A stretch of DNA of 56,240 nt, filler included, from Perkinsus olseni (lineage: Eukaryota): assembly GCA_013115125.1 (NCBI GenBank). It is 2 parts of 2 records of this genome, joined end to end, with 100 filler letters (N's around TTAATTAATTAA, not from the genome) between each part and the next. Parts side by side here need not be neighbours in the genome. Positions count along the whole stretch, not along the records: positions 1 to 28,086 come from JABANN010000455.1; positions 28,187 to 56,240 come from JABANN010000456.1. One strand, given 5' to 3'. Made by a program: the position numbers and the translations under genes. Within the stretch, counting starts at the first letter, position 1; each line of letters begins with the position of its first letter. Under the pieces are notes generated by a model, which saw nothing but the letters and a program-made list of their open reading frames with translations, was not told where the DNA came from and searched no databases. Below are positions 11,762-48,615 of this stretch, in pieces.

Positions 11762-12929
11762 CTAAAGGATCGTTCGCTCAGCGAGGATCATCAACTCAGT
11801 GGAAATCATCCAACTGCCTCTTATTCTTGTTAGGACAGGACTGCTGTTCATGATATTGCCCTGCTCGTTTACAGCCTTGAGGACCCTCACTATCGCCATG
11901 AAATGACGGAGGCCTCTCAGGGAGTAATCGTATCTAACGTGAATGGTCAAGAGACGGTCCAACGATGACCCTACATCAGTGAGCCTTGGATACATCTTCA
12001 ACGTTTGCAACTGCACCTCAGCCGTACCATCCGGTCGGACTCCCATAAGGACCCCAACGCCGAAAGAGGTGCGAACTAGGGGTCCGATCTTCTCGTGGAT
12101 CAACGCGTTTTGGTAACTGAGGGCCCCACAGTGATGACGGTGACGGGCGACATTCTCACCTTAGAAGATCCGTCTCGCTATTTTCTCTCATTAATTTATT
12201 CGTTTCGTACAGGAACCCTCTAGCGTTGTGATAACGTTCGTCATCATCAGAAGTCAGAGAGTAAGTCATAATAATATACTGAGAAATTCTTGGCAATGAC
12301 CCGCCCCCCAAGAACAGACCACATGACGCGCCGAGGAAATAGCGCACGCCCAGATCGGGCGAGCGCTATTTCCTCCACGACTCGGACCGAATCGTTCGGT
12401 ATACCATGTCTGATAGATAACACATTGAGTGCTTTAACGCGCCGTACAATAGCCCGTTCGGGAACCGGGGCTGGGAATAGCAGAGTTCTAGGACTCAGCT
12501 AGGACTCTGCTTCGGCCACGAATCCCCACCCCGGTTCGAACCCAAGCACGGACATTTCTCTATCCTAGAATAGCATTGCCAGCCAGAATCGGAAGTTCGT
12601 TCTCAGAACAGAATGGGCAGAATGGGCCAGTAGTAAGAAACCGAGGGGAGGGAGTTCCGTGAAGAAGATGTGCGCAGCCGAGGGAGGTGACCTCTGAAAG
12701 CCAACGGCCTCCACACTCGAACCAACTAGGTGGTGATTGTCACAGGTCATAACCGTCTTTGGGAAGTCCTCTCTCGAACGATCAGACTAGGCCCTCTACC
12801 AGTACAGGTGATGACCGGAGCCGACAGCCCAACACATAACTGATCTCGGCACTCAACAGTCCACTGTAGGTCAATAGAAACGCATTTGGCACTCGTAACA
12901 GAAACATGACACACTATCTCCTCAGCCAT
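11762..12929 (-). CDS. Hypothetical multi-exon protein (boundaries approximate)
   Basis: Successive minus-strand ORF segments separated by short GT-AG introns (..VRTSFGVGVLMGVRPDGTAEVQL..; ..ARGFLYETNKLMRENSETDLLR). No family recognised. Confidence 0.4.
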
Positions 12930-13259
12930 CTGGACTCGTTCTTAGCTCGCTCAGCTGCGAAGTCAACAACCTTCCCTGATCGTGTAGGCTGCCGCCTCTT
13001 GCTGTTGTTGGGACGCTCTGTCGTCTGCAGCTCGATACCGGCCATACGCTGATTATTCAGTTGATTCTTAACCACCTGCGCGAACACGGGAAGTATCTTT
13101 CAACCTCACCTACGACAACCAAGGCCGCCTAACATATCACACCCAAATGCCTCTAACAAGCCAGAACTAGGTGTCTCATTCCCTTCAACTCGAAGGCTTC
13201 GAGGTGCGGTCGTGTTCACAAAAAAACAGCGCAGGGAGATTGTGACCGTCCCTTAGACA

Positions 13260-16200
13260 TCACACGGAGCAACATGGACCTACTATATCCAACAGACCCG
13301 CCAGGAAGTCGCAATTCACATCAGATGCTCCTCCGCCGCTACCCTCGGGGAACTGGTCATCTCCGATACCAAACACGGCATATCCCCTACAACTGGATGA
13401 TGATGATGATCGTAATGACCGAGGAGGCGGCTCACTTGGCATTCCAGATTCGATGCCTGAGTTTGGCAGTTCCCGTCGTCAGCCCGCTGTAGTAATGTAC
13501 AATCTGGGACTTCCTCAATTTCGGATCAATCACGCAGCTCAACTCGGACATCAAGATTGGCATTTCCCATAGCGGCCACTTGTAACCAACCTCCACCTCC
13601 ATTTGATGGGATATGTCCAACTGAGCGACTAGCGCTCGCCCTAACGATCGATTTACCTCAAGAAATTACCTTATTGAGAATCTCTTCCCATGGCATTCGG
13701 CTAGGGGGGTCTTGCTGAGCCTGTGTACCTGCGAGTTGAGGAACTGTAAGTTAGCAAGATCGGTGGGGTTTTACTCCTCCAAGCCACTTTCCACTTCTCC
13801 ATACCCGCTACGACTGACGGCTCGTCAATCACGAACCACTTCAGGGCAGCTGCACTTGCTAAGGCCTCGTATCTGAGGTCCAAGCGTGCAATATACGAAC
13901 GTTGCGAACAGCACAAAGACTGAATCCCTCTAGGATAGTAATTTTCCCTACAGTAAAGCCGCTTGATGAGGGTCTCCCTTCACGCAGTCGCCATGGTCAT
14001 CGAACTCGACATCGCCAACTGCTCTCGCGGGGTCTTCGATGATTCGCGAGCCTAAGGACACGAAAGAAGGAGGTAACGCTAGTCTGGTGACACTCCCTTC
14101 AAATCGGGGGTGGTCTCGCTGCGCTGACCATTCAAGACTGTTTCCTATAATGCAACAAAATCCCCGATCGGGATGAAGTAACGAACCCCGTCCGGAGAGT
14201 ATGGAGGGCACTGCGTAGGGTGTATTACAGAGGACACTCCATGGTAGGGGACGGCTGAAGTTGGCGACGACTAATGACCAGGCTAGGGAGGGAAGGGCCG
14301 ATACAGACGATTGACGTATGATCTGACAGTTACGGCACAGAGGTTGACGCTGGCAAGATACAAAATAGGTTACCTTCTCGATATCCACCTTCTCTACCAG
14401 AGCATCATCATTGACAAGTCCAGCAAGGCTCATCGAGTAGAAGGCATCGATGAAACTTAGAATAGAAAAAGGAGTTATCACCAGACACAGTGGTGCCGGG
14501 GCGGTAGTTGAGCATAAAATCCATAAGACACCCCCGGGATTTGTCGCCTCTCCTCCCAGGCCTGTACGATGCTCACAAGATCTCGATCTGCCTCTGCAGG
14601 AATCAGATTTCTCGGTAGCGTGTAATTCTTCACGCGCCACAAAATTAGGCACACGGTACGAGGCCCGCCAACGCCAATGTCTTACTCTTCCGGATCGAAT
14701 TGTCTTGCACGGTCCAGACACTCGCCGTACAAGGCAACTAAGGCATCCTTCTCTCGCACTAAAATAACCAAAATTGTGGTATAGGATGAGGATGATATTG
14801 TTACTTCCTCCAGCTGCCGCTGCTAGACACAGCTTAGCGATTCCCTTCGGCTGAATTTCCCGCAGACCCGCCATAGCAGATATCTCCAATTCCCGCATAG
14901 GTTTCTAAAATCAGTTGCCAACCTCACTTCGTGTAATCCTAGGGTGAAGATAAGATACTCTTTCACAAGCGTCGACCGATAGATGCAGACCCCAGAAGAT
15001 ACTACTCCTTCCGCGGTGTACAGCAGTAGAAGTTGCGGCAAAACTTCTCGGTCTAGGTGATTGGCTGACGTACGGATCATCTGCCGGAGGGGGTAATTTC
15101 GTGGCGCAGTGACAGATCTGACTCACCTCGGCTGACTCGTCAAGGACACCATCTGCTACAGTAGGCATTTTAGCGAGCTCAACCACAAGATGCGCGGCAT
15201 CGTTACGATTAACCTAAGGAGTGGTATGCACGCACGCACACGCTAGAACCTTACACTCTGGTCAGCGAGGACATCCGACAGCCGCTTTCTGGCGTAAGCA
15301 GCAACAGGAGACATGTCGGGGCTGGCCGGGTCGGTCGAGCTAAATAGTGAAGGACGCGGGGTTCGAACCGGGGACCTTTCGATTACCCACCTTAAGAAAC
15401 CCGCTAATGCCGGTAAACTCCTGTCAGGAATCCTTCCAGGATTCGCGGCCAGCCTAGTAAGAGCCTTGCTGACGATGGATTTCTGATGATGTGGTTTATA
15501 CGACAAGATTTATTGATACCAGAAATTCCGTAAATCACCTGCGCCTCGTGTTTCCCCAGCGCTCTGACCATGTCCACAACTTGATGAACTTCCAAACGAT
15601 CAACCATTCCCTCCATGCGAGTGAAAACCTGGATTCGACCCATTTCGTATCCTCCACTCATCAACCTAAGATACGCCCCACCTTGGGTTTAGTCAGAACC
15701 TTGTGGCTGCGCTTCCGCATACTAGGTTCGCACAGAAGATACCTACGAGAGCATCTTTGCTCACAATCGTCCAACTTTTGATCTTCCCTACAGGGCCGGT
15801 AATACCGCAGCATCATCAACTTCCGGGGAGTCGATCCAAGAATCGATCGACTGGTGTAGAGCCCAATGGGTGTAATCATCGAGACGAAGCCCCATCCACT
15901 GAAAAATAACATTGAGAGAACGCTTCGCTCCGCGTAGAAAATCAGCGATGTGTTAGTCAATGCTCAGGGCAGCTGCTGCGACGGAGTAAAAACTGGCGCG
16001 ATGGCGTCAGAGACACGACGAAGCTACGAAGTCTACTTGGTGAAAGGCGAGCCACGATCTACGGCGTATTTTGTCTGCGAATGTTGATGCGACGAAAGCA
16101 TCGACAGGATTGGTAAAAATGAGCCTCTCTCCACGTCGGGCAGGAAATTCATGAGAAGTTTGCAACGAGAATGAGCTCATTTTCCTGCGGCCAGTACGGT

Positions 16201-17846
16201 GACTCTGCTCCCACTCACAGTAGTGATGACGTAGATAGTGCGAATCCTCTCCACAGGACTTAGTTCATGTAAACGTTCGCATATTTGAAACTGAGCAGAG
16301 TCAACCTAAGATACGCCCCAATCGATCAACTTACACTCAGCCGTTTCGCCATTTGTCGTGACGGATTGGCAACTCCTGGAGCGCCCAGTATCTTCAACAC
16401 ATCATTCACCGATACTAAGGTCGACATATTCCGTATCTTACACGGAAGTACTCTGCGAGCTCGGATATCTCTGGTCCGGAGAATCTCGCCAGATCCAGGG
16501 CGGCGCCCATATCGTCCAACAATCGTTGGTATCTTACAAAAGATCAAATTCTTCCGCGTGCGCGGCTACCAACCTACTCCGGTAAATTCTCGAGCCCTTC
16601 TATTTCCTCAACATTCTGGTGATGCCCGGCCAGCTGCTTCAAGGCTATCACAATTCTGCCAGGCTGTGAAGACACCCGGTTCGATTCCTGCACCCGTCAT
16701 TTTAATACTACCTCGCTCTTCCCCGATACGTAAACCTTGAGTATCTCCACAGCTCCAGGAGTAACCTCAGTGGCAATTTCCCTTGTCGATTTCGGAACCG
16801 TTAGACTCGCCGGGGGCGCACCTGCGACGCATCTTCATCTACGTTGGACGATTATGCTCGATACTCTCAACGCGGTTTCAACTACTACTGTTTTTCTCAG
16901 GTAATTCCGAGCCATCTTTACAAGCCTCATGCCCCCCTTATTGAAGTTTCGTCCAGACCCAATCCCTCCTTTCAGATGGCTGATGCCTCGAATAAACTTA
17001 TCAAACGACTTAGCGGAACTATAAAATCGCCAACACGCCGAGCGAAGGATAGACTCTCATAGCGGACATAGTAGATTCCAATTCTTTCTGATTTCACCAA
17101 CATCATGAGCAACCTCCCTAATTTTAGTACCCATTTTCAGAATACCGTCCTTCGCCCAACTTACTGCTCTCAACTGGAGTGATCATAACCCCACCAGCCA
17201 TGCTCGGCCGTTGGACTACCGGTATGGTTCCTCGAGGGGCCTGTGGGTGTCGAGTCGAATTCGTCGATTCAAAACTTGCTTCGCTCCGCCCTTCAAATGA
17301 AATATTCTCCAATTTTTCTCTCCTCACCGGGGCCGCATTCTCCAAGTCAGTTATTCTCTTGAGCCCCTGCGGCAACTCAGCGTCCACGAGCACATTCATA
17401 CCAACTTTCGCCGAACTTATCGGTGTGACCCCCCTAGGTAACCCTCGCTCAGCCCTCTTCTCCGCCTCTCCCACTTTAACCAAACCCTTCGGAAGCCTCA
17501 TCGCCGAAGCTTCTTCGACCGGCGGTGGTGGCGGAGGTCGGCGTAGCTTCACGTTCGGTGTCTCCCGGCCGACCCTAGCCATGCCCTTTGGCAACTCCCG
17601 TGGTATCCTCGGCAAGTCATCATCCTCACCGACCCTCCTATTATCCTCGCCCGGCCATGATTGACCCGAGCCCGTCGCTCGACTGGTGACTCTGGAGATC
17701 CCCGCAGGAAGGCCACCGTCGCCAGAAGAGGTAGGAGCAGCGGAGTTCTTCTCAAAGGAGCGAAAGACCCCGCGGGGCAGCTCTTCCCTAGTAGAGGTCG
17801 CGAAGGCACGGCGGGTGACGGGGAGGATACGGCGGGAGGTCATCAA
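13260..17846 (-). CDS. RAP-domain, helical-repeat RNA-binding protein with a putative mitochondrial presequence (may be two genes)
   Basis: The C-terminal exons LDISHQMEVEVG..HYYSGLTTGTAKLRHRIWNAK/GYAVFGIGDDQF match the RAP pattern. Helical segments include LPSLAWSLVVA, QPKGIAKLCLAAA and LHELSPVER. The N-terminus MMTSRRILPVTRRAFATS is presequence-like. Joining of 16-17.8 kb to the RAP exons is inferred. Confidence 0.6.
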
Positions 17847-17929
17847 AAGCTGCAGTCATGCATTCACCCCTACGCAAGTGAACACAAGTCGATATCAAAG
17901 ATACTACGCTCCGCTGATATCTTCGTGAT

Positions 17930-19000
17930 CATCAGATAATATCGTGACCTCTATGTCATCGTCGTGGTTCGACCTAAGATACCATCCACCGCGAGACGTA
18001 TCTTCACAATTCCAACCTTACTGCGCATCTTGGAGGTCATAAACCAAATCATTACTCGGCAGTTCAACGCTCCTCCTGGACTCTCTCATCTGCTCCTCCA
18101 ACTCACCTATTCGATCCTAACATAGCAAATCTTGCAATCTTGCTCAATCTTGCTTTTCCTTACCTCGGTATCCTTCAGTCTTCCACCCAGTTTTAGTGGC
18201 CTGAGCTGCTCCGTGCCCACCCTCATGCAAGAACTGCTTGTGTGAAGCTCACACGCCAAACGCCACAATTTACGACACGCCCGGAGAGCATCCAACGTGT
18301 AGACCTAGAAACGGAGTATCTTAGGTTGAAGCTAGGCTAATATCCTGAGGTCAACAACAATACCACTCCAGCGTTTACCTGTAATTTCAGGTCACTAGTA
18401 GTGGTCTCGAGCGCGGTCATCTTAGCCGGCATCTGTGCAGCGGTTACCAAATGCTGAGGATACCTACCAAAAAATCATCGAATTAAACGAAGTGGACTAG
18501 ATCGGAGGTGCACTGAATATTAAGTAGGTGAATTTTCCCTAAGCAAGTCGCCGGGATCGAACCTGCGCCCTTCACCTACGCTGAGAGGACGGCTAACTGC
18601 TCGTCGATGACTCTCTTGGTGATCGTCGCCGCAGTAGTGAGGGCGTCAGTAGACCCCATCGTTAGTCCAGCCTGTTCTGCCATTATATATTAATCTTGGT
18701 AAAACTGAACCGCTTCGCTCCGCTAATAACCCTCCCCTCACTCGGACTCAGACGCCAGGATGATCATCGTCAATATTACAGTGAAAACAAGCCGTCAACG
18801 AATTTCCTCCGGGATCTTCGTGCAGCTTCCCCACAAAGACAAGCTTCGGAAAAATCGTAAAAATCTTTACATATCACAGAATTCACGCTGGGGACTGCTC
18901 CGAGCTTTCTCTCTTTAGGAGAGTCCTTTAGTGTTCAGGAGAGTCTTCTAAACTCCATGACGCTCCCTCGACCGAACAGAATCACCACGGCGCATCCGAC
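17930..19000 (-). CDS. Hypothetical multi-exon protein (approximate)
   Basis: Short exons bounded by GT/AG (LEEQMRESRRSVELPSNDLVYDLQDA; DALRACRKLWRLACELH; DALTTAATITKRVIDEQL). Confidence 0.35.
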
Positions 19001-19216
19001 CTTGAAGCAGTAAATTTCCAGCGCGAGTAAACCTAGCGGAGCGAAGTTTTTCGATAAACTTTTCGTCAAAAAAATGTAATACGAATATTATTTCATGGGA
19101 AATATAATTACGCCGCTAAGGAGCTATTCCATCACAAGGATGCGATCACAAATCGATCAATCGATCGATATTGAAGAACAACTCAAAAGGGAAGATGTGA
19201 GAAGAATAAACAGTGC

Positions 19217-22200
19217 TCATGATCTCCTCCCAGCCCCGAACAGGAGTTTGGCAATGAGTCCGGCCGTGATGGCACCGATGCTCACCTCGTTGATCGTGAT
19301 GGGGACCTGAATGATACCGAGCATAGGGTAGAAGGGTGCGAAGCAGAGAAAGCGTTTGTTTTCAAGTCCTTCAAAGTTCGACGATAGCTATAGATAATTG
19401 ACAAGCCCGCATGAACACAAAGATACCCACCTTAGCGATGATTCTGAAAATCGGGTTACGGTATGCCGATTGGGGACACCATCCCTGTGGGAGAGTCACC
19501 ATCAGCCCCGCCGGCACTCCTGTAATGGCAGCCGATCCAGCCGACGACCACCTTGAAGGAAGAACACCGAGGAGTGACTCTTCAGCAGCGAGGAGAGTAT
19601 TCTCTCGATGAATCCAGTGAGCGGCCCAAGACGTATTCAGAATTCCTGATAAGAGCCTACAGTAGTTCCACCCGCACAGCGGCGGAAGTATCGAACTTCC
19701 GGAGCTGTAGTGAAATAAATAAATAAAGTTGAACAACGTCTTTCCCGAGCGCCAGCCGGAGTCCGATAATAATAATAATTCCAACCTAATTGAGTTGAAG
19801 CGACATATAAATTTACTAACAACCGTACACGAATAAAAGGGTCAGCTTTCAACAGATATCTACAGCGAGAGGCGGCCTTCAAAACGAAATACAGAGTGTC
19901 GGGATCGAACCCGCGGCCTGCACAGCTTAGTACCAATATAATCCGTATTTATCATCGGTCACCTCCCATTTTCGGCTGAACGCCACCAAGGCTCGACGCC
20001 CGAGATCATCTAAACAAGTATCTCAGGTCGCAGCTGGCAAGATGCAGAATAGGTCAATTATTACCTTGTACCAGTCTTCGTCGAGGATCCCCTTCATTCT
20101 CTTTCGGCAGTAGTACCCTCTCCGCGAGTCTACCACATTTCTCCGGCATCGCCAGACAAGTGCAGAGGAGCTCGACCAGGAATGGCTTCAACGACCTACA
20201 AACGGGGCACAAATCACGCACATGATGATCAGAGGTAACACAGCTAGATTGAAAACCGCGTTAAAATGCGAAAAATAAACCCTAGTAGGATAAATAAAAT
20301 ATTCAGTAATTATCAACACATCCCGACTCACGGCTCATCGCCAAATCACCCGAGAGAGCGGCAGAAGGCGGAATTATAGGACTACTATAGGTCAGCGTTG
20401 ATGCTGTAAATGAACTGTACGTCTAGGAGAATGCAGAAAACGTGACATTGGCCCCTCCGAATTTCGATAGAATCATAATGTCATAATCAGCTTACCCCAG
20501 CTTTTCCACTTCCTCCTGAGTGTGCAACTTCCAGACTAAATAGTCCACCCTAGGATGATAGAAGGATAAGAATCTTGGACGTTGATCTGACTGAAGACAA
20601 AACAAAAGATACGCGGCAAGATACCCGTCCGGCTGGTAGTGAGCCTTCGACTACAACGAGACGCGCAAACTGCAATTGGTTCTTCGACGAACTTCGGTGT
20701 GGTCCAATTTCCCCGAGCGAACTTGAGGACAGCAGAAAGGTATCCGAGGACTACGACAGCCCGCGTCAGCAGAGAAGGGAATACTATTCAAGTAGTCCAA
20801 CCACATGTAGCGGCACACAGGCGGAAAAGCGTCCAAAATTCTCGCGCGCCCCGAAATTATTACGTTAACCGAATAAGGCATATTAAGCTCCCATACCCCT
20901 TCCATGCTGTGATCAGGATTCGGCATCTATCAGTAGCAGAGGCATAAAAAGCGCTCGCCCAAATGATCGATAAAAATACCCCTTCGGCCTGTACGTGGAA
21001 GGTGAGGGCGCTTCTACCGTCGAGGGTGTGTGGTACGGGAGGACCGAAATTTCCTGCCAAAAATTTCTCGGCATAATTTCGTAGCGCGCGAAACTACCAC
21101 CGCGCTCCTCAGAAACCATCGCGCTACGAACGTACGGTACCGGTAGTATACCTGCTTATGGCATCAACTTGACCTATCCCGTATCTTGCTTACTCGAGCT
21201 CAAGGTTCCTTCCATATCATAACCGACGACATCAGTCGTTCCGATCAGCCAAGCGGTGGCGACAGCCACTAAGGTCGCTGCCACACGGATTGAAAAACCT
21301 CCTGAAGAAAGGGAAAATCGGCAAAAAACCAAAATCTGAAAACCACGAAAACGCTAAAGAGGATATAATCCGAAAAAGGCGTAAAAACGTCCGAGAAAAT
21401 AACCAGCAGAACTGTTTCGTCAAGCAAGCTGCTAAATACTTTCATTTTTCCCTCCTCCAACAAGGCCATAGACGACCGCCAACACTCCCGGGATAGTAGC
21501 AAGGACACTCCAAAGCCCAGCAGGCCTGACAGGACCGCGCTCGCCCTGGTGATCGATACGGTGTTGAACGGTGTATTACACAGAGTCCCTCGACACCACT
21601 GGACCGAGAGAGCCGTACTTTAGTGCCAATAAGACGGCCGGTAGATGTACGACGATGGTGAATATAATAGAAGGGACAATCTGAGACAGAAAAGTGGGCT
21701 TTCGGAAAAATTCTATTTTTCTGACATTTTTCACGAATGTTCTCCGCCTGAAATTCCGGGAAAATCTTCTCCGGGAATTCACACGCAGCGAGACAAACCT
21801 TTCTGTCCCCGTCCCGAAAAATAAACAATTTCCCCAATTTTTTCATACTCCAACTTTTCAAACGGAATGGAATAACGACCGAGCCTTCTTGTACGGCAAA
21901 GGTCTCAGGTTCGATCCCACCACCCGACATATTACCGCCTTCACAATGGTCTTTTCCACTCTTTCCTCTGTCAAAGGTGCCAATACACGCTTACAACCTG
22001 GTGCGAAAAGCGCTCGCCCTGGTGATCGGATCTCACACCACTTACCAAAGCGTTGGAATATATCCGTTCCTACTACAGCAGCGATGATTTCCTCATCGAT
22101 CGTCCCAACACTCAGAGCTAGGAGTGTCAGAATAGACCAGTTCAAATTACCTGCAAAATGCTCCAGCCGATATTCGAACCAGAGACCTTTCGATTACCCA

Positions 22201-23560
22201 CACAAGCTGACCACACCGCCAAAGCCGCCATCGAGACATTTGAAAGGAATTCGAAAACGCTGGCCGGCGGGGACGCCATCAGAATTAATGAGGCCGCGAT
22301 TTCAACGGCGATAGTCAATCCCCCAATAATACTGTGAAGAACCTGTCAGGAAAAGTGCGAAACGAAACTTGCTTCGCTCCGCTAAGCTCACGGGAGGAAA
22401 TTTATCGGCATGCCAGATGAAAGGTAGAGGGAATGGGGCGTCTAACATGCTCGACCAGGACATGTCAGCCAAGCTTGTCCAGGCCAAATCTGAAGAAAAC
22501 GCAAGATTTAGCAAGATTAGCAAGATCCACGCTTGGCGGTGGATATTTATGGGAGCGGATCAAGCACGCTTCGAGATACGTCGCTTAACACGACAACCAC
22601 CTGGGGTACCATTTACAGCAGTCCTAAAGGGGACTATTATTATCAAACCCACTTCCATCGATGATGATGAGAATCGAGGAAAAAGAGTTCGCTTTACGGA
22701 TAGATCCCCGGTTCGATCCCAGCATCTCACCATTCTTCACAATAGCGTACAGGCCGGCAGAGAGGAAAACTCTCGACAGCAGGAACTTCAAGTAGACCGT
22801 ATCTAACATACAAATCGATCACTCGGGCGCGCGCATTCCGCAACATACTGTTTGTGAATTCTGCTATGAAGACCATCAACGAGGCTTCGACCAGTAGCTT
22901 GTCATAACCGCTCCAAATCAACTGCGGGCCGACCTTGGATACTTCGGACTCGTAAGATACGCTTTGAAGCAACCTAGTGCAGCTCTTCGGGATTTTTCAC
23001 CGCGCCACGAAATTGCTTACACCAGATGAACCGCAGCAAATAGCAGACCGTGAATCGCCACGGCCACCGAACTGAATGAAAAAATTGAAAAATAGATGCT
23101 CGACAGAAGACAACATATCTGAAAAGGTTCCATCATGTAGTCGAACAAAATGCGTATCTTAGGTCGATCCACGTCTTTCACAGACATAAAAGATACTACC
23201 TAGTAGGTAGTACCTACCAGCATGATGCTGATGGCCATGCTCACCATGGGGCTGATCGAAATAAACCCGCACGGGCCGAAGATGACCTCCGAATCTTCGA
23301 GGAGACTCGAAAAGGCAAACACTTGTGCAACGACTGAAAAAAACACACTTAAAGACAGCAAAAAATGCAGAACATGCATCGCTTCGCTCCGCTAGACCTT
23401 ACACATCAATTTGATGCACAGGAAGCTGGACAGGGAGACGGTGCTCTCTTTCTGAACCACCATTGAAAGATGAAAACTGCGTTGAGAAAGAGCAAGATTG
23501 CAAGATTTCCAACTTAAACCCAACAATCCAACAACATGGACAACTTCCCACGAATCATGA
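19217..23560 (-). CDS. Hypothetical polytopic membrane protein(s), many short exons (approximate)
   Basis: Hydrophobic exon fragments (IIFTIVVHLPAVLLAL; WSILTLLALSVG; LVEASLMVFIAEF; IGAITAGLIAKLLFG) between short introns. The number of genes is unresolved. Confidence 0.35.
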
Positions 23561-25089: not shown

Positions 25090-25807
25090 CTAGGCAGACA
25101 ACAGAGCTTCAGTTAGAGGAGGGTTGTCGGTTCTGGCTCCTTCCTCCCGAGTGTTGTTCTTGAGGGTTAGGTCGAGGCACTCCCTCAACAGTCGTTCCAA
25201 TACGAACCCGCCAAGACAGGACAATACGACCAGAATGTTACTCCGATCTGAAAACTATGAATGACGAGCTTCGACCTAAGATATGTCTGGGAAAATCGAA
25301 ACAGCAATGTTTTCAGACCTAGAACGAATGGCGAAACTCCTAAAACTGTCACCATGGACCTACTCGCCAAACCTAGACACTGCACGAGAATTGAAGACGC
25401 TTATCCGGCGAATCTTAGGGGGGTCGATGACGAAGTGTCCTTCTCACCCTTACCGCGACTACCTGTTATATAGCAAACCGCCAAGACGATAACGTTCTCC
25501 CAACCCCACAGTTGTGATAGGAATTCCAACAGGGAATAAGAAGCATCCCACTCCTCTGCATCGAATGCATTCACAGTCCGCCAACCTGAGAGAGTCCAAA
25601 CACCTTCCCTGTGCGCCCGAGCGAAGATACTCCACGTCTCAGACACTGCAATACTGATTTCTTTTCAAAACTCGCCCCCTCAGGGCGGAATCCTTCTCTG
25701 TGCGCAAAGATACTCACTGGTCCACCAACAGCCCAGTCCAGCCAGTCCAGAGATCGCTGCGCCTGATTGTGATCGGGCTCGTGAAAAGGAGAACGCCTGA
25801 GGGGCAT
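25090..25807 (-). CDS. Hypothetical multi-exon membrane protein
   Basis: MPLRRSPFHEPDH.. / ..WDASYSLLEFLSQLWGWENVIVLAVCYI / ..MVTVLGVSPFVLG / ..ILVVLSCLGGFVLERLLRE..LLSA*. Confidence 0.4.
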
Positions 25808-28086: not shown

Positions 28087-28186
28087 NNNNNNNNNNNNNN
28101 NNNNNNNNNNNNNNNNNNNNNNNNNNNNNNTTAATTAATTAANNNNNNNNNNNNNNNNNNNNNNNNNNNNNNNNNNNNNNNNNNNN
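28087..28186. other. Assembly gap spacer (N44-TTAATTAATTAA-N44)
   Basis: 100-nt artificial linker with stops in all six frames. Confidence 0.97.
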
Positions 28187-31313: not shown

Positions 31314-31358
31314 TGCTCCGGCGGCACTGAACGACACTCCGAGAGAATATTGAAACCA

Positions 31359-36500: not shown

Positions 36501-37484
36501 CGACTCCGTAAATGCCACACTCGACCTCGGATTCTTACCACGTAAAAAATGGGCAGCGTGCACAGGGCCGTGAGGAACCTCCATCGAGTGACGGATTGGG
36601 GAAGGCAGAGCGGAAAAATGAACTAAAAAATACCTCAACCAGGAATTGAACCCGGGACCTCACCAGTAGCGTCAGAATCATTATTATCAACGCCTTATTG
36701 TCAAACCACGCGGAGGTGGTGAAGATTCCTATGAAATCATGAATCTGAAAGAAAACGTAAAAACCACAAAAAATCCGAAAAATCCAAAAAAACCACGAAA
36801 AAAATTGCAAAACCTCTCAGAGGGACAAAATTAAGAAAAAACGGAAACTCGAAGTGCTTAGATAAAGAACGTGAGAATTTCTCACTGAGAAAAATGCGTG
36901 AAAAATCAACAAAGACGGAATAATTTTCCCCGGAATGTTTTGCATCTTACAAAGTCGAACATGAAATTCATGAAAGCCGCCGTCGCTCCGAAACAATCCA
37001 GAAACAGGACAGCCTCCACCACACGACAACTGGCGGATCCTGACAAAAACACTTCGATGTAAAAAGCGCGCGCCCTGATGATCGATTTGTTACCCATATA
37101 AAGTTTCACGCAGTCCTGATAGCTGTTCATTCCGGTCGCCCTGCCAACGTCGAGAAGGACTTTCATCGACACCAGCGAAGCGACGCCGCTCAGAATCAGA
37201 ATGGCCATCCCCCACCACATTCCTAAATCTTGCAATCTTGCATTTCCTCAACGCTCAGGAATCCCACCTAAAACTGCAAACGCCCAGGGTAAGCTCAGGA
37301 TACCAACACCAACAGCAGAAAACACCAATGTAAATACGCAGACCCGTAGTGAACCTAAAGATACCAAAATTTAATTTCGTGGCGCGTGACGTTTGTCCTT
37401 GCCTGGATGCAGCGGACTGAACGCCCGTTCGAGCCACGATCGGTGACCTCCCTCATGAACAGAACTCTCCGCAGGTCCGGCCAT
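33504..37484 (-). CDS. Amino-acid transporter, AAAP/SLC38-like (Aa_trans), multi-exon, spans a gap
   Basis: GSLRVCVFTLVFSAVGVGILSLPWAFAVL/GMWWGMAILILSG..SYQDCVKLYMG; VEAVLFLDCFGATAAF; C-terminal VPSLVDLLGVLGGFCAVMLIFVFPA../AFLVFTVIGLYSAVESLVQFFKRS*. The first intron (37355-37402) is GC-AG. Confidence 0.88.
36010..36305. repeat. 43-bp tandem repeat (minisatellite) in a transporter intron, interrupted by an N gap at 36092-36189
   Basis: Unit GAGTATCTTAGGTTGAAGCTAGTGTTTCATAGTATAACAGTTT, with starts at 36196, 36239 and 36282 (partial) and two more copies before the gap. Confidence 0.95.
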
Positions 37485-38016
37485 CAGAAATGAACTGGAA
37501 AAATCGGAAAACTCAGAAAAAAAACGGAAAATTCCACGAAAAATATCGAAAATTCCCGTCGCGATTGATGATATTTCAGTCAACTTTCGATGAACTTTTT
37601 TTCAGAATTTTCTTCAACGGCAGAGCATCTTTCCCAGGCGACAAAAAAATAAGAAGGGAGGGAAAATGCAGCCGAAAATTCTCCGGAAAGTTTTTCCGAA
37701 AATTACCGTGAGAGGGGCCACGCTCGCCAGAACTCACAAGCGACATAATAACAAGAAGACAGGAAAAAGCCAAAAATTTCCGGAAATTTTCGCAAGAAAT
37801 TCGCCACGCAACTTTGAACTCAACAGTCAAAAAATCCCGAAAACTGATTGGTCACGCGACCCGCACGCGGAAGATTTTGAAAGATACTCATGGCGACACG
37901 ATAGCACACACTAACCTATGATACTTCAGATGCACAAAAACAATATTCTAACCAAATTTTTCACAATGAAAAAAACGCTTCGCTCCGCCTTTTTGTAATT
38001 TCGTGGCGCAGTGACG

Positions 38017-40364
38017 CTACACCCAACTTTCCGCCTCTTCGTCTTCCCCATCTTTTACCATCTCCAACGGCAATTCTCGAATTGTCTTCAAATTTTTCTG
38101 CAAACCCAAACTCATCGCTCCGCTTTCTCCTACCATCCCAAACAAAATCTTGCAATCTTGGCTAGCTTGCATTTCCTCAACGCCCTCAAACCTCAACACA
38201 GTCGGCCGCCTCTCAGCGCCCGTCAGCCTCGGCGACACAATTTTCGACGCTTGCTTCGTCGAGATCATCTCCACGTCAATCAGCGCTTCCTCGACAGCTC
38301 TCGCCGGCCGCTTCGACGCATCCAAGCTCGGCCCACGCTCATGCAAATCGCGCGCGCCCTGGTGATCGATTTCCTCCTTTCTCCGACCTTCCAATTCTCG
38401 TATAAGGCCTCGCAGCTCCTCGACACGGTCCCTCAGGCGACAACACAACGCCGTATCGATCCAGTCTGCCTCAGCATCCCCCAGTAGCGAATCGTCACCA
38501 GTGGAAATTCCACCGCTCGAAAGATTAGCTTTTCTCAAAGCCAAGATATATCTTTCTCTTGACAACGAATTCTCGTCGTCGGAAAATTTATCATGAAAAT
38601 CTGCTGTTCCAAAATCTGCGTCCGCAAACGCTTCAAATTTTACCCCGAACATTTCCACGTCCAAACAGCGGCGTTGGGAAGTCTCCGTGACATAACAGAA
38701 TCGGAGGTGAATCAACTTGGCCGGTTCGGCACTGAAAGAAGGGAAAATTAACCGTGAATTGAGTAAAAAGGATTAATATTTAATAAACTTGCAGTCGAAA
38801 TTAAAACTGCGCAATTTATTTTCCCGGCAATCTACTGTGTGCGCCAGTTTGATACGAAAATGACATTTATGCTTTTACACGACTCTCGATGGAATCCCGG
38901 GATGAATCATACCTCAAATGGAAGGCAATCGTGATATCAATCCAAACCGTGACCAAGTTCAAATCGATCAACCGTTTCGCGGAAGATACCACCGGAAAAC
39001 CGTTTCGCGACGAAAATCACTGTGCCATTTTCGATACGCAAGTTGTGTTTTTCCATCAATCAAAATTGGTTGTAATTTAATAACAGTTAAAATGAGAAAC
39101 AACCGTTGCAATTTGATTTTATTCGAGCTGACAAAAGTTCACGTGCTTCGCTCCGCTGCGCTCGAAACGAAAAATTTCCACCATGAATCACAGAGCTTGG
39201 CACACCTCCCCCCAACTGCTGCGCGGTATGCCGTCCAATACACACAATAAGTGCATCGAACGCCCGCACGGCGAAGGATTCCTGTACAGCGTTTCCGAAT
39301 CTATATTACCCCAGCATCGACCTAAGATTCGCTTTGACCTTATACAGTGTCCGCGCCCATAGAACACGCTGTCAACATGACGATGTAAAAAGCGCGCGCC
39401 CCAGATCGATCGAAAACCGTTTCACCCCTCATTATTACCAATTATTTCCCTCACTTCCCAGGAGCCGCATGTAGTTGTAAAATCTTTCATACTCGCTCTC
39501 CCGTCTGTTCGGCGCCGTCCGCGTCCAAGATTCTCCGTCAACCTCGTCAGCTCCCAACAGCGACAAAAGATTCATCCCAAGCATATTCATTTGCCCGCCG
39601 AAAAACTCATCCAACTTCTTATTATCATTATCAATAATTTCGAAAGATTCTCCTCCTACCACGAAAACCGTATCAAAAACCGCCGCTAATAATCTTCGCT
39701 GTGCGCTGTAAAACGGTTTCACTTTCCTATGCAGCGCCATCTCCGAACGGACCGTTCGACCCTGGATGAACCTATGTCGCCAGCCGATGTCGCATCTTCT
39801 CAGCGCCAAGAAAATCACCAAAGATATCAACGCCAGGGCAGCGACGTGAAGGAGAATGTATTCCCACCAGGTCTGATAGGGCTCCTCACTTAGCAAAATT
39901 AAATACAAAAAAAATAAACAAATCGTGTAGCAGAGCAACATGAAGACCTTAAAGACGCTCAGACGTCCGCACAGACTGGCTGACGTGAGTCCGAAGATGG
40001 CCACCAGAACCGCAACCCCCTCGTCGTACAGAGCCGGCCCGTGATTGTCCTCATCCTTCCAACCCGTAAAAAATTCTATAAGGACTTGAGCTCGTTGCGA
40101 ATCGAGAAGCGTATAAAAGACATGATGCATAATAAAAATAACCGCACCAATTTCGACGAATTTTTGAAAACACTCACAGGCCCGCAGCGTCCAATGGGCC
40201 ACCCCAAGATAGATCAAACTGATCAGCAAATTGAGAATGAAAAACTGACCAGCAACCCCCGGCCAGAACTTGGATACTGCTTGGTCGCGAGAGTCGACCA
40301 GTGAGATATATCGAAACAAGAAAAGGGCGATCAAGGCCAACAACCGCATCTGAAAAAAATGCAA
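38017..40364 (-). CDS. Hypothetical multi-pass membrane protein with a cytosolic/coiled-coil C-terminal region (approximate)
   Basis: ORF 39435..40364 has about six hydrophobic segments followed by RRLLAAVFDTVFVV..KLDEFFG (possibly PAS-like). ORF 38017..38715 is coiled-coil-like. Linkage of the two is inferred. Confidence 0.5.
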
Positions 40365-40749
40365 AAACGAGTTGCTTCGCTCCGCCTAACTTGCGGCAAA
40401 CTAGCGGGAAGATACGACAATCCCCGATTAAAATTTCCGCCAGAATTTTCGCACACCCAGCGGTTCGCGAAAACCGTTTCTCGTCAGCGACGATTCCGTT
40501 GCTGTTCGCTCGCTTGCTTGCCGGCTTGCAGTAAAAGTCACCGCTTCACTCTTACGAGCTTCCATCACACAACGCCGTTCCCGTCTACAAAAATTCATAG
40601 TCAAATTACTTCAAAAACTTCAAAAACGATTTTCCAACGTCCATTAATTTTTCCCTTTTAATTTTTTGTTGAGAATAAGAGAGAGAATCAAATACGTAAT
40701 CAGTAAATTTCTGACGAACGCGCCTCCAGAATTTCGAGCAAGGGATTGC

Positions 40750-41826: not shown

Positions 41827-43989
41827 CTACTGTGCAGGTTGTTGTTGTTGTTGTTGTTGTTGTTGCTGTTGGGCGGCCATCTTCTGCTGCATCACCGCCA
41901 TGCACATTTCCAAATTTTGACGTTTTTCGCCTAGGACCTACGCATGATACCAACTTCTCACCAAATCTTGAGACTATGGGGTTTTCGGAGAAAGAGCAGA
42001 GATCGCGTCATCCGCGCTACTCGACGAACAAATGCCCTATCTACATAACACAATGGAGCTGTGCTCATACTAGCTTCGCATTATCAATCCATTCTCTCAA
42101 CTACTCCACCTTTCTATCTACTCTATCTCGTTCACTATGAGCCCAATCTACTTATGTTGTGTTCTACAACCACGTCTGGCACAACGAGATAGCGCAGTTA
42201 TGTCACCAACCCAGACCAACTCTACGCATCTTAGGTCGATGCTAGTAGGATGCAAAACTGGTCAACACGAGGCATTTTTCTCGCCCCATATAGGCAGAAC
42301 AGTGACGAGTCACCGACATAGACTACGGTTCCCGAGCGGGATCAGACTACAGAAAAGAGCTCGCGCTGCCGACTTCATCATTCTACATCTCGAAAATGCT
42401 CTCGCCGCTCTCACGTATCTCTACACGAGTCATCTATGCTGTGACGCCTGTACTGTCAACATCAATCCTGACCATGTCTGGCCCAATCCAACGGCATAGC
42501 AACGACTACCGAGATTTTCGTCAAGTCCGCAGCGATAGATACTGTGTTTTACAGAGCCACTCGACCGCCCTTCTCGTTCCCTGGGGCATACCGTCCTCGT
42601 TTTTGCATATGAGAATTTTTTTTGTTACGGCCAATACGAAAAACACATCTCACTTCGCGTCTCACGGGTAAAACCAGAGAAAAGGTAAAGCAGGTAAAGC
42701 AGAGATAACCATGGCAAAGTCTACAAGCGTGATATCGCCCATCAAAATTCTGGAACCGTCCTCCCAGTTCTTCCTCTTCGAAGGATGACTGCTGATTTTT
42801 TTTACGCTCCGTACCGCTATTTCTTAACTCATGCTTGAAACCACTCATTTCCTGTAGTTTTGGAGAAATTACAATAATTGAGAATTGGAGAATTCTTAGA
42901 GGAAAAATCGGAGTTGACGAAATTCGCCCCCTCCGTACCTTCGCGAGACTGCCAATATTTCCATTGATCATCCCTGATCGATCCTCGCAGTGTTTCTGAG
43001 CTGCCGCGGTCGGTTTCTCGACAAAATATCTAACAAACACCCTGGCGTGATACAGGTTAACCTAAGATACGCATTCTCACCCCGTTCCAACGTTCAACAA
43101 AACTCTATCGACCTCGCACGCTTTACCTGATAGAAACACAGACCCCGGTTCGATCCCGGCACCCCGCATTTTTATTACCTCGAACATAAACAGAATTACT
43201 AAGCGGCACCAAAGTCTCCTTCCCTTCGTCCTTATCGGCGCTCACTCCTCCCAACGCCCGAGCACTCATATCATACCTGTCGAAATTTTATGCTACTTTT
43301 ACTGCCACAACCAGTTACTACGCTTGCTGAGCAACTCTGAGCTTGGTAATGGTGTCTGTCAATTGACCGACCTCCTGAACAAGACAGAATCGATGATGCC
43401 ACGAAGAACTATTTTCAAGTTCTTCGAAACGACCAAAATCACCAAGTAAAAAAACATTCGAACCATCACAGGGTTCGGCGGATCATCAGAGAATCTTCAA
43501 GCAACTTGAACAAAGCTCTGCTCAGCCCTTCCGAACGGACCTCGCGGGACAATTCTCGCTTAGGTCGTTGAAAATACTTTCGATCAGTCGTACCACGGTA
43601 AAAAATTAGGAGAATCCAATGATTTTGAAGCCCTAGATTTTCTCTATACCTACGGTAGTACACGATAAACGTTGGTTCGCTGCCCAATTCCGAGCTATCC
43701 GAAGCGGCCCGATCCTCGGGGCGTGGTATTTGACATTGTCATTCCTGCATCCCGGCATAGTGGTTGCCTCATTTTTGCATGTGGCCATCCGTAAATGATA
43801 TTTTCTACTCCCATTGACCTAAGATATTCCTCGTCGCAATTACCAGTCACAAATTTTCATGACGTAAAATTATAATCATAACCTAACTACCTGTTCAAGT
43901 TTTTGTTTGTGCTGATTGAGCTCAGGAAGAGACAACTGCGTCGGGTTGACGGTTGACGGTGGCGAGGAAGTGGCTGCCGCTGCGGACAT
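41827..43989 (-). CDS. PFDN5: Prefoldin subunit 5 (alpha type), 6 exons, C-terminal Q11
   Basis: MSAAAA..QLSLPELNQHKQKLEQ / EVGQLTDTITKLRVAQQ / ..EGKETLVPLSNSVYVR / GKACEVDRVLLNVGTG / YFVEKPTAAAQKHCEDR..SLAK / VLGEKRQNLEMCMAVMQQKMAA(Q)11PAQ*. Confidence 0.9.
42033..42196 (+). mobile_element. 164-bp solo-LTR-like repeat, copy 1 (in the last prefoldin intron)
   Basis: TG..CA ends with a 9/10 terminal inverted repeat. Highly similar to and the same length as 48757-48920 (inverted). No TSD. Confidence 0.75.
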
Positions 43990-46291: not shown

Positions 46292-46300
46292 TCATCATCG

Positions 46301-46333
<33 letters not shown>
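46292..46333. repeat. (TCA)14 microsatellite with one TCG, probably a poly-Asp tract of a minus-strand hypothetical gene
   Basis: Direct reading of the sequence. Confidence 0.9.
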
Positions 46334-48615
46334 CGCTGGCGTGGGCAAGTATTGAGCGTTGACCAACTCTGCCACGCTCTTGCGTCGGCGTAGTTGCTGG
46401 ACCGTCATGCTTCCCCGATTTCCCAGGTTGAGCAGCAGACTACCCGATTGTGATTCTGGCGAGCTGTCGACGACAGTCTGTCGTACCTGATGGTTACGCA
46501 AGGCATCACCACAAATATAGCGTTCTGTTCAACACAACCTAAGGTGTTGGACGGATCCTAGGTCTTCGCCTTGAGTCTGCGCACACTGGCACGCAGACGC
46601 ATATTTTCTCGAAGCGAAAATACAAATCTTAGAGCGAGGAGTGCTCTCGCTCTACTCGATGGAGCTGCTATCGGTTGTAGCTGTGAAAGTAGCATAATTT
46701 CATCATGTCCATATTAATCGACTTCGACACGTACAATATTGAAGATGACAGAGGAGAAAAAAAGAAGGTTGACAAACCGCGGAGTATCCTAAATAAGATA
46801 CGCCACTGGATGAAGCGGTGTTGTCGTACGGCAAGGTTAAGCATGATAATAATAAATAGAAAGATACTCAGGTTTTTCGCGCTGCGAAAGATTCATCATA
46901 ATCATGGGAAGATTCCTCCTGGAGATGATCCTCGGAATCTTAGCTTGCTCCATGACTATCACGGGCATTCAAGATACCACAGAGTAATTTCCACGATAGA
47001 GGGAACAGTAACGCGCCATTTAGCAGGTACCATTCTTGGCTGAAGGGAAATTGCACGATCCAGGATTTCGACCGGTCCACCAGTTGCCATGATTGCAATT
47101 TCCGAGTCAATTTGGTGAGAGAAAAGTGAAAAAAGTTCAAAAACTGAAATCAATTATCATGATGAAAATATAGATTTCATAATACACTGAGTCTTGTGAG
47201 ATAATTTCGCCATTCCAAGGCGTTTCTCCTCGACTAGCCGACATGCTAAGATTCAATGGAAAATTGACAAAAGGGATTCCTCTGAGCGTTACCGAGCTGA
47301 AAAACTGTGACTGTCTTATCCGACTTTCTCGCAAAATTTTTTCCGCGTCGAACAAGATCTCCTCAGCGTTTGACGTATTGTGTTTCCAAATTGGTGCAGA
47401 AAATCACTCCGACACGACTTGGCAATTTTTATAGAAAATTCTTGCCCTCTGCGACGACCTCGATTCATTGAAGGTATCCTCGGACGATGCGCCTGAAGTA
47501 GCCAATACTACAGGCCCATGGAAGCCCATCTTCGCTCACAACGTGAGTTCGCTCATCATCGCTGGCTGATTTTCTTGAAGAATTTCATCGCAATTTAAAT
47601 TTTTAGTCTTCGCTCTCACTCTTTCCTTCAGCGCAGAACTCGCTCCGCTGCGTAGACGATTCGGATGATCGTAAAAACGGAAATAAGCATTAGTCAATGA
47701 AAGAAACTCACTCTCACCCTGTCTCACCTGGGGCACAACATCTCTCTAACCAGGTTTTTGGACTTGCACGAAAGGCAAAACGCGCGCTCGGTCATTAGTA
47801 ACTAACTGGTCGTTTCAGATGGCGTTGAGCACTGAGAAGTTCATGGTGAGGAAAAATGACATATAACTTGAAAACTGAGATCGTTCTTTAGCTGTGAAAT
47901 TCTCAGGAGAACTCTTCCGCTCGGCGTTGGTACAACGGAAAGGTGCAACGACTGTTATCATTTTTCAGTATATTACTAAGCGCGCAATGGTCGTGCCGGA
48001 AGACACTTTCAGATGCTGCGGTCATCCGGAACCAGAGGTGAGTTTTTATCACAACTGTTCAAGGCACTCTTGGAGGCGATAATTATAGACAAAAATTCTC
48101 GAAACACTTTCGAGAATTATTTTATTCTTCAGCGATATTTTCGAATATCTCTAAATGGAGCATTCGAGAACTATCAATAGGGATTTCTTGCAACTCTGGA
48201 AAGTAGATGAATTTCCGACGGAAAATACCTTCCCGCTTATTTCAGAGATCGTCGTCTCCAAGTCTCCCGCCTGGCACTACTCCCGCGCTCGACCCAACTG
48301 CAACTTTCTCGTGCTGTGAGTTCAAGATTCGTTCCTTCTTCGCTCCCATTTGTTGACGGTAAGATTTACGTCACCCGTCGTTCCTCTAATTAACAGATGA
48401 AGAACTAGTCCTCGTGAAGAGGAAAATTATTCTTCCTGAAAATAACACAAAATAAATCACGAAATATTTTTTCAAAATTATGTTATTTTGTCACTTACAA
48501 AGGATATAGCGCACCCCAGCGCCCTAAGATATCCTCCCTAAACCCTCCGCTTGTTAGGTAATTTCTATTCCTCGACATCGAGTCTCTTTTGCGATGCGTG
48601 GACAGCTCCATCGTG

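Follow-up and report, generated by a model that had tools for sequence, protein, structure and literature searches.

Gene array and word families

The window analyzed here is a 56,240-nt stretch of Perkinsus olseni DNA (assembly GCA_013115125.1). Between approximately 12 and 48 kb it carries an array of genes pervaded by a small lexicon of short recurrent words, which occupy introns, outrons and spacers and, at a few places, conserved codons. The words had been described in an earlier note made from the sequence alone, and their pervasive occurrence is confirmed. A cyclophilin-like open reading frame (ORF) of the window is 95% identical to P. olseni proteins. Throughout 12-48 kb, the G+C skew is negative and the A+T skew is positive, with a G+C content of 0.41-0.52 that is below that of the flanks; the sustained skew is consistent with the whole array being transcribed in one direction. 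RNA contigs from four runs contain CT..AC joints, corresponding to GT..AG introns of minus-strand genes, and loose ends (TGAGCCAAGAT, TGAGCCAAGA and TGAGCCAAG) at 12280, 18706 and 23478 on the minus strand. In reverse complement, these loose ends read as the Perkinsus spliced leader (ACCGTAGCCATCTTGGCTCAAG) printed in PMC3101222, indicating trans-splice acceptor sites, hence gene starts, at the three positions. The minus-strand joints and the leader ends together define the region as a one-strand array of genes receiving the spliced leader.

Four genes of the array are listed in Table 1. The multi-exon model P0008 threads on the window over 1031/1031 amino acids, and four of its introns are confirmed by RNA joints. 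It is noted that the P. olseni models P0001 and P0002 fuse the PPIL6-like and LMF1-like genes (23478-23636); that the two genes are distinct is indicated by the acceptor at 23478 together with a PPIL6-like stop at 23561.

The lexicon consists of five main families, F1 to F5, and a tRNA T-loop motif. With at most one mismatch, F1 (GTATCTTAGGTYGA) is found at 19 sites, F2 (GCGGAGCGAAGC) at 10 and F3 (AATTTYGTGGCGCG) at 11, compared to 0.05, 0.30 and 0.01 sites, respectively, expected from dinucleotide shuffles of the window. The 25-mer F4 (ATCGATCAYCAGGGCGMGCGCTTTT, ATCGATCAY...) has 6 sites at <=3 mismatches, with 0.00 expected, and 10 sites at <=4. The 30-mer F5 has 2 sites, with 0 expected, and its 16-nt core has 5 sites at <=2 mismatches. 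F1-F5 account for 55 sites in total, where the shuffles give <1 per family. The T-loop sequence GGTTCGAWYC yields 14 exact matches (0.72 expected) at 11 places; one of them is a real tRNA-Leu gene, and the other 10 places are relics. All five word families quoted in the earlier note are therefore recurrent far above shuffle expectation.

The k-mer comparison with a Markov background suggested there was run within the window. It gives 46 canonical 10-mers with at least 5 occurrences, a count that includes the 43-nt array described below and paralog repeats at 1-8 kb, compared to a mean of 1.4 (maximum 4) in 30 order-4 Markov simulations. Clustering of those 10-mers with no prior word list returns the same families and a few minor ones. 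One minor word, GAAACGGTTTT, is located at 38996, 39413, 40470 and 46046, at one place directly before an F4 copy.

The 55 main-family sites all lie within 13628-44875, forming two clusters (13.6-27.5 kb and 34.3-44.9 kb). Recurrent 11-mers are denser than expected by chance at about 15-27 kb and 34-44 kb only; 27-34 kb and both flanks are at background level. The range of 12-48 kb proposed earlier thus holds in outline but is slightly generous, containing a chance-level stretch at 27-34 kb; in addition, positions 10650 and 12533 carry T-loop relics, and 12335-12373 forms an F4 palindrome. Both orientations are represented, as had been claimed, with 37 minus-strand and 14 plus-strand copies among the 51 sites outside the 43-nt array.

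When the window was aligned to itself by BLAST (E <= 1e-3), dispersed sites were found to share only 22-33-nt tracts, except for the paralog repeats at 1-9 kb, a 169-nt inverted duplication and, at 36.0-36.3 kb, the 43-nt minisatellite. This 56-kb self-comparison reveals no long repeat underlying the words, in agreement with the earlier suggestion that no longer element is involved. The information content drops to zero outside the word cores. An inverted partner of 5 nt or more accompanies F1 at 7/16 sites, compared to 8.9% of control positions; the distance is variable, and variant arms match. In a metagenome scan, a 21-nt F4 pattern gave 42 loci with a G+C of 55-74%, each with one match and no co-occurring lexicon, taken as chance in prokaryote-like contigs, and the F1 and F3 20-mers gave 0 matches in viral contigs.

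Words in introns, outrons and spacers

Intron maps were derived from the RNA joints listed (15 of 70), a spliced alignment of P0002 to the LMF1-like gene, and exact threading of P0008. A de novo gene finder, which over-spliced or recovered 8-12 of 15 known introns, was set aside for these protein-guided maps, and a local intron heuristic proved unreliable at 26 unannotated sites. The sub-words AGTATCTT and AATCTTGC were counted beside full words.

A word or sub-word is present in 28/41 mapped central introns, compared to 1/8 of the listed RNA-confirmed introns of highly expressed genes at 10.4-12.2 kb (P = 0.005). Word-blind 11-mers give a similar picture, with 24/37 model-mapped central introns and 1/8 flank introns. 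Among the joints listed, all seven RNA-confirmed central introns contain a word, one of them a sub-word only and one a word that straddles the 3' splice site. The words are mostly mid-intron, in introns of 44-56 nt. In the LMF1-like gene, 9/10 cleanly mapped introns carry one word each, typically 6-25 nt past the 5' splice site of a 46-54-nt intron. Many introns of non-paralogous genes thus share sequence, with six families (T-loop included) spread over unrelated host genes. The words do fill introns of unrelated genes as stated earlier, usually as the core of an intron of about 47 nt, and the proposal of modular intron-building blocks fits these counts.

Coverage by recurrent 12-mers (>=3 copies) amounts to 209/3599 intron bases, versus 5/4045 exon bases of two multi-exon genes. 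Two single-exon genes are as word-rich as introns, with 85/1536 bases covered. Outron copies are located 7 nt before an acceptor (18712) and abutting one (23479-23508), and spacer copies are found at 20845-21088 and 37977-38010.

The consensus of the U12-type 5' splice site is RTATCCTT. F1 was considered as such a site and rejected: among RNA-confirmed introns, it is at the 3' end of 17974-18021, inside 25248-25462, and in antisense in 18305-18378. After intron 17974-18021, where the F1 copy 17969-17982 crosses into the exon, the first exon codon encodes Ser (TCG), whereas P. olseni P0006 has Leu; the difference matches the C/T variable position of F1 (GGTYGA) and suggests that the P0006 strain carries the other F1 variant at the same place.

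The T-loop relics look like copies of tRNA genes. ARAGORN and Rfam find only two true tRNA genes in the window, at 52.8 and 53.8 kb; the relics retain just the T-loop (B box) and have neither a cloverleaf nor the A box, B box and tail of a tRNA-derived short interspersed element (SINE). CCA is absent from the tRNA-like units 36623-36663 and 43127-43178. The two intact genes, Leu-TAA at 52766-52845 (minus) and Arg-TCT at 53782-53855 (plus), lie in the right flank, and their T-arms differ from the intronic relics, indicating that they are not the donors. A scan against Rfam (E <= 10) returned nothing on the words except a chance-level SNORD121A match (E = 1.1, 25245-25319).

Copies in conserved codons

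In the PPIL6-like exon, F3 at 24090-24103 encodes NFVAR and F2 at 23857-23868 encodes SGAK, and part of F4 is present at 23610-23622. The relative P0003, 61% identical, has NFVAR and SGAE at the word positions with no gap in the tblastn alignment. In ORF38k, F4 at 38346-38370 encodes IDHQGAR, for which P. chesapeaki has IDHSGAR (tblastn), and the F5 unit at 38130-38181 encodes GVEEMQASQDCKILFG, identical in P. chesapeaki, with the reading frame continuing after the unit. The earlier observation of copies in homology-supported codons of the PPIL6-like gene (24090 and 23857) is upheld and gains two more in ORF38k (38346 and 38145), so that four copies lie within conserved codons of two single-exon genes, without indels.

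A fifth copy, F2 at 17278 (GRSEA), is probably coding. It lies in a segment, 17241-17327, that model P0008 splices out and RNA contigs read through, and the relative P0007 has RRSEA; P0003, P0004 and P0007 may be plain ORF calls. The segment may be a retained intron within coding sequence (exitron). The ORF at 13951-14904 (NFVARE) was rejected as a third coding copy, since model P0008 puts the sequence in an intron.

Evidence for copying

Exact tracts of 19-30 nt are common to different sites. F5 at 37223-37252 equals the ORF38k exon minus 9 nt, and the copy at 23479 is without the same 9 nt. The exact tracts and the common deletion indicate copying, not convergence. The likelier source is the ORF38k exon, since its version of the sequence is conserved across species. 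Four GT..AG units of F5 are present, at 38130-38181 (exon), 37223-37252, 34500-34539 and 18117-18163 (RNA-confirmed intron). A TTTTTAC tail is common to the non-coding F4 copies and absent from the exon copy, indicating that the non-coding copies descend from one another, not each from the exon.

In flank comparisons across all families, 23/500 pair-sides have >=7/10 matches, compared to 1.9 expected, and the right flanks show a graded, subfamily-wise similarity. Splice borders do not limit the common tracts: the 29 nt that 15340 and 22151 have in common reach 4 nt into an exon, and the F1 copy at 17969 ends 5 nt in an exon. Copies inverted next to each other, tandem arrangements (three of F5; the 43-nt array) and patchwork introns of two words are common, as would be expected of template switching. 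Templated micro-insertion or conversion, one of the possibilities raised earlier, is consistent with the exact 19-30-nt matches, the 9-nt deletion, the border-crossing tracts and the indel-free codon copies.

Table 1. Genes, word copies and related features of the array, in window coordinates
Feature	Start	End	Strand	Context
P0008 multi-exon gene model	12917	18683	-	28 GT..AG introns; 15-17 hold a lexicon word or sub-word
LMF1-like gene (PF06762)	21195	23478	-	spliced-leader acceptor 23478; spliced alignment to P0002, 288/329 identical
PPIL6-like cyclophilin coding exon (PF00160)	23582	24484	-	continuous tblastn alignment with P0001-P0003
ORF38k, conserved single-exon gene	38020	38652	-	tblastn with P0004 and P. 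chesapeaki P0005
F1 GTATCTTAGGTTGA	15661	15674	-	model intron 15629-15681, also with T-loop-like piece
F1	16301	16314	-	model intron 16291-16334
F1	17969	17982	-	spans 3' splice site of RNA-confirmed intron 17974-18021; last 5 nt exonic
F1 antisense	18316	18329	+	RNA-confirmed intron 18305-18378
F1 antisense, 7-bp inverted partner	23154	23167	+	5' intron region of LMF1-like gene
F1 ATATCTTAGGTCGA	25271	25284	-	RNA-confirmed intron 25248-25462
F1	34385	34398	-	about 78% like 15661 copy over about 46 nt, by eye
F1, then two GTATCTTT sub-words	34659	34672	-	
F1 variant	35945	35958	+	edge of 43-nt array
43-nt minisatellite, unit contains F1	36012	36305	+	units 100% identical; broken by assembly gap 36092-36189; may be longer than assembled
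F1 variant	36439	36452	-	
F1 variant GAATCT.., inverted partner AGATTC	39317	39330	-	
F1 variant, then AGCTAG	41524	41537	-	
F1 variant GCATC.., inverted partner GATGC	42226	42239	+	
F1 variant	43057	43070	-	
F2 GCGGAGCGAAGC	15922	15933	-	23 nt before 3' end of model intron 15899-16218
F2	17278	17289	-	inside 87-nt in-frame GT..AG segment 17241-17327
F2	18712	18723	-	outron, 7 nt upstream of spliced-leader acceptor 18706
F2 antisense	19036	19047	+	upstream of gene start 18706
F2	22371	22382	-	49-nt intron 22343-22391
F2	23381	23392	-	first intron of LMF1-like gene
F2	37977	37988	-	just past ORF38k stop; 8 nt from antisense F3 37997-38010
F2	39145	39156	-	context resembles a short intron (putative)
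F2	40374	40385	-	candidate 41-nt intron 40350-40390
F3 AATTTTGTGGCGCG	14633	14646	-	model intron 14456-14685; TCGTAC at same offset as exon copy 24090
F3 antisense	15095	15108	+	46-nt model intron 15081-15126
F3	20845	20858	-	spacer downstream of LMF1-like coding sequence
F3 antisense	21075	21088	+	spacer downstream of LMF1-like coding sequence
F3	23001	23014	-	47-nt intron 22974-23020
F3	26876	26889	-	RNA-confirmed intron 26735-26900
F3 antisense	37373	37386	+	
F3	40802	40815	-	
F3 with CGAGAAA extension	41387	41400	-	within 183-codon open frame
39-nt palindrome, two inverted F4-like arms	12335	12373	-	55 nt upstream of spliced-leader acceptor 12280
F4	13628	13652	-	model intron 13621-13669
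F4	20947	20971	-	spacer after LMF1-like gene
F4	21533	21557	-	intron 21526-21579
F4	22006	22030	-	intron 21998-22045
F4 antisense	22814	22838	+	46-nt intron 22803-22848
F4	25063	25087	-	
F4	26580	26604	-	28 nt, 93% like inverted copy 27468
F4 antisense	27468	27492	+	
54-nt candidate intron, F4 core 37062-37086	37040	37093	-	Aa_trans-like gene (weak Pfam match)
F4 with indel	39381	39413	-	19 nt GCGCGCGCTTTTTACATCG common with 37062; GAAACGGTTTT directly before
F5 unit	18117	18163	-	RNA-confirmed 47-nt intron
F5 antisense	23479	23508	+	abuts spliced-leader acceptor 23478
F5-like GT..AG unit, 40 nt	34500	34539	-	
F5	37223	37252	-	3' part of candidate 45-nt intron 37223-37267
T-loop relic	10650	10659	-	RNA-confirmed intron 10628-10674; sole word-bearing flank-gene intron among joints listed
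Model intron	15340	15390	-	first 29 nt GTGGGTAATCGAAAGGTCCCCGGTTCGAA match junction of intron 22151-22197
48-nt model intron	16664	16711	-	antisense T-loop relic
RNA-confirmed intron	18464	18579	-	T-loop relic 16 nt past 5' splice site
Intron	21681	21935	-	begins with antisense tRNA 3'-half relic running through acceptor strand
47-nt intron, tRNA-like core	22151	22197	-	tract common with 15340 reaches 4 nt into upstream exon
Intron	22490	22730	-	antisense T-loop relic at 5' end; three tandem AATCTTGC (F5 sub-word) at 3' end
41-nt GT..AG unit, putative intron	36623	36663	-	tRNA 3' half: variable loop, T-arm, acceptor strand, T6 run
52-nt GT..AG unit, putative intron	43127	43178	-	antisense tRNA 3' half including T5 run

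Proposed origin of the words

We tentatively propose, with a confidence that stays somewhat short of even, that repeated templated copying of short patches seeds and renews the intron cores of the array. The words would be the shared cores of families of copied DNA patches of about 12-55 nt, and such patches would make up most of the non-coding DNA of the array, including the 44-56-nt spliceosomal introns, the outrons and the spacers. Short stretches would be copied and pasted at the DNA level by template switching or ectopic short-patch repair. The donors would be few, namely the 3' halves of tRNA genes and parts of neighbouring exons (some bounded by GT..AG), with copying directed from exon or tRNA gene to intron. 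As neutral copies, the patches would persist freely in non-coding DNA; within genes they would survive if located in a spliceable mini-intron or giving rise to one, and within codons only as length-neutral replacements. The net effect would be a micro-introner process, introner-like in outcome and operating with no classical transposon.

Several points weigh against this proposal. The intron maps rest partly on the predicted protein models P0002 and P0008, 27/55 sites lie in unannotated stretches, and the counts are those of the 56-kb window. There is an excess of sense copies, 19 vs 6 in mapped introns and 37 vs 14 at all sites, a bias that a purely DNA-level neutral process would not predict unless antisense copies were filtered out. 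The word cores are nearly invariant, with 9/10 F2 copies exact, and their flanks are random-looking, so that either very recent copying or constraint is needed. The F2 12-mer is located in two conserved coding contexts and two reading frames (23857 and 17278), which a single-source model does not explain without conversion. Finally, the left flanks of F1-F3 have 0/205 pairs at >=7/10 matches, with means of 2.65-2.87 compared to a null of 2.50. Such a sharp left edge is not predicted by ragged patch copying and points to a discrete unit or a selected site.

Selection of cis-acting motifs is a serious but, in our judgement, doubtful alternative. The words would then be putative binding sites for DNA or RNA factors, such as a TFIIIC B box without a tRNA gene, sites of transcription or chromatin factors, or intronic splicing enhancers, for which introns and spacers would be nearly the sole non-coding room in a compact genome. 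Sharp-edged, near-invariant cores in random-looking flanks are consistent with this explanation, as is the presence of words on both strands. GGTTCGA is exact at 10 places and the 3' stem strands are decayed, with 1-4/5 complementary bases by eye, indicating that the B-box part was kept and the RNA hairpin was not. The codon copies have no change in length, as if they had arisen by substitution. However, the 19-30-nt identity and the common indels show copying rather than convergence, and nearly one site per intron, drawn from six unrelated motifs, would be unusually dense for regulators. In the highly expressed neighbouring genes, introns of 41-64 nt are spliced with no word in 7/8 of those listed, which implies that short introns as such can be spliced without one. 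Structure is just slightly more pronounced in word-bearing introns, with a mean z of -0.2 compared to +0.4 and +0.6 for the others; RNA structure was therefore rejected as the reason for the words, the shift in z-score being weak. Resemblances to small nuclear RNA fragments (Sm-site-like AATTTYGTGG and U1-like GATCAC..CAGGGCGAG) and to E2F-like or telobox-like sites were likewise dropped. Among the three readings offered in the earlier note, modular intron blocks and templated insertion or conversion agree with the data, whereas protein-binding marks are neither favored nor contradicted by them.

Decayed mobile elements could also have produced multi-copy families with subfamily-specific positions and flanks. 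These would be introners of the type of miniature inverted-repeat transposable elements (MITEs), or of another type, possibly linked to the tRNA-gene-targeting Dada transposons of P. marinus, with the full consensus and autonomous partners elsewhere. The likeness of F5 from GT to AG in four units, one RNA-confirmed, the similarity of the 15661 and 34385 copies over about 46 nt, and the short inverted partner often found with F1 all favor such an origin. Introner elements in the related Amoebophrya (PMC7789003) and Dada in P. marinus tRNA genes (PMC3706591) provide precedents. Nevertheless, we consider this origin unlikely. No terminal inverted repeats (TIRs) or target site duplications (TSDs) of a MITE or DNA transposon are present at intron or word borders beyond GT/AG, the exceptions being the F1 partners and the 12335-12373 palindrome, and the absence of such structure was correctly noted before. 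There is no longer repeat in 56 kb. Uniform decay would not spare the mid-intron while the ends vanish, common tracts cross exon-intron borders, and the copies in conserved codons are free of indels. A transposon bounded by the inverted F4 pair 26580/27468 or 22006/22814 was considered and rejected, as the interval holds expressed, spliced exons.

About as unlikely, in our estimate, is a dedicated copying system, a eukaryotic 'motif drive'. Such a system would take small-RNA-sized units of 12-30 nt with a fixed 5' edge from exons and tRNA genes and write them into transcribed DNA across the array, creating or renewing spliceosomal introns and sometimes overwriting codons length-neutrally.

The sense bias in mapped introns could potentially be explained by reverse splicing, in which excised introns, including cryptic GT..AG exon stretches, reinsert into the same long precursor RNA and are fixed via reverse transcription and recombination, yielding local, sense-oriented look-alike introns. 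The GT..AG-bounded F5 units, one of them exonic, and the location of the words in a one-strand array trans-spliced with the spliced leader would be in line with this route. We nonetheless regard it as quite improbable, because there are antisense copies, some of them in minimal 46-48-nt introns (22803-22848, 15081-15126 and 16664-16711), as well as copies in outrons and spacers. Most families share the core only and not the splice sites, and common tracts cross splice borders. The idea that F5 is a relic spliced leader, of the sort found in dinoflagellate retrogenes, was rejected, since by eye no word matches the leader or the leader-intron primers printed in PMC3101222; the leader itself appears only in the loose ends of RNA contigs.

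A chance, compositional or assembly artefact, for which the scaffold gaps at 28087-28186 and 36092-36189 might be cited, is practically refuted by the shuffle and Markov controls, by six DNA runs in which all sampled words of 14001-24000 are present, and by RNA contigs of four runs that reproduce word-bearing introns and their removal. Two further DNA runs with the same organism label, X10 and X14, contain 26-28% of the sampled words.

Comparison with known systems

We have compared the words to several known systems. Repair of double-strand breaks can leave templated insertions (filler DNA) or new introns, usually as single events that draw on nearby flanks. The present copies resemble filler DNA in being short and in either orientation, with snap-back and tandem copies and patchworks of sources, and in having no TIR/TSD. 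They differ in their recurrence, as the same few words are found 10-19 times in a region of at least 30 kb and have a fixed left edge. Bacterial DNA uptake sequences are exact 10-14-mers found in coding and non-coding DNA, in both orientations and with no mobile-element structure, and these features are all seen here. In contrast to uptake sequences, the words belong to a eukaryote, several of them are unrelated to each other, most exons are strongly avoided, and the longer matches reveal copy-and-paste rather than point substitution. Extra-TFIIIC (ETC) or B-box-only sites and tRNA-derived SINEs likewise place the B-box sequence GGTTCGANNC away from tRNA genes, but the relics described here lack an A box, SINE body or tail and lie inside spliceosomal introns on either strand.

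Introners of Micromonas, Aureococcus, fungi and dinoflagellates show the same sharing of sequence among introns of unrelated genes, with copies that generate or fill introns and some families without TIR/TSD. Here, unlike in introners, mostly 12-30-nt cores are shared, with several unrelated cores per gene, and copies are also located in outrons, spacers and conserved codons and on both strands. The introner survey PMC9860276 requires BLAST E <= 1e-5 between introns plus flanks and reports TSDs/TIRs in part of the families. Whole-intron similarity at that level was not found in our self-BLAST (E <= 1e-3), where the tracts are 22-33 nt, with F5 as a partial exception. The earlier contrast with introners as whole-intron copies is therefore valid for most families, which share the core only, and fails for F5, alike from GT to AG in four units. 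Matches of 12-30 nt in introns of about 47 nt would probably fall short of the threshold given in the survey, and screens of this kind would probably miss the pattern.

The introner elements of Amoebophrya, a parasitic early-branching dinoflagellate and thus a related lineage, are repeated introns that spread like transposable elements. According to PMC7789003, they have 8-20-nt inverted repeats joining the intron ends, 3-5-nt border direct repeats and non-canonical splice sites, whereas the introns here are GT..AG with no such end repeats. The Dada transposons of Perkinsus marinus (4.7-11 kb), which according to PMC3706591 split tRNA genes at the A box, share with the present relics the genus and the tie to tRNA genes; the relics differ in being T-arm-to-terminator pieces in introns. 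In the literature searched, no report of repeated intron words or introners in Perkinsus was found, and a search for the word sequences returned unrelated primer coincidences only.

The origin of new intron sequence is an old open question, for which introner transposons account in some lineages only. In the present array, most of the short introns in several unrelated genes can be seen to be built from a very small lexicon, and tRNA-gene 3' halves and conserved exon stretches of neighbouring genes are two of its probable sources. If the process were a general by-product of repair, the turnover of introns in other compact protist genomes might have the same explanation. As Perkinsus is amenable to culture and transfection, the role of the words in splicing, strain differences and the locality of copying are testable.

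Other features of the window

Tandem paralogous segments in the left flank, at 1193-1752, 4219-4872 and 6961-7870, are 77-87% identical and account for most repeated k-mers outside the word domain. The 169-nt inverted duplication (42033-42196 and 48757-48920, 87.6% identical) was considered as an empty-site control and found uninformative, as its homology stops about 30 nt short of the F1 variant at 42226. A near-perfect long hairpin at 31259-31319, with about 28 bp per arm, lies just downstream of a 582-codon ORF (31359-33107); it has sub-threshold matches to microRNA-precursor models. CCAGTGGTGA is present three times at 19-nt spacing. The RNA-confirmed 132-nt intron at 25586-25717 holds two direct copies of about 30 nt (GAGTATCTT.GC..GCGCACAG.GAAGG), located about 80 nt apart.

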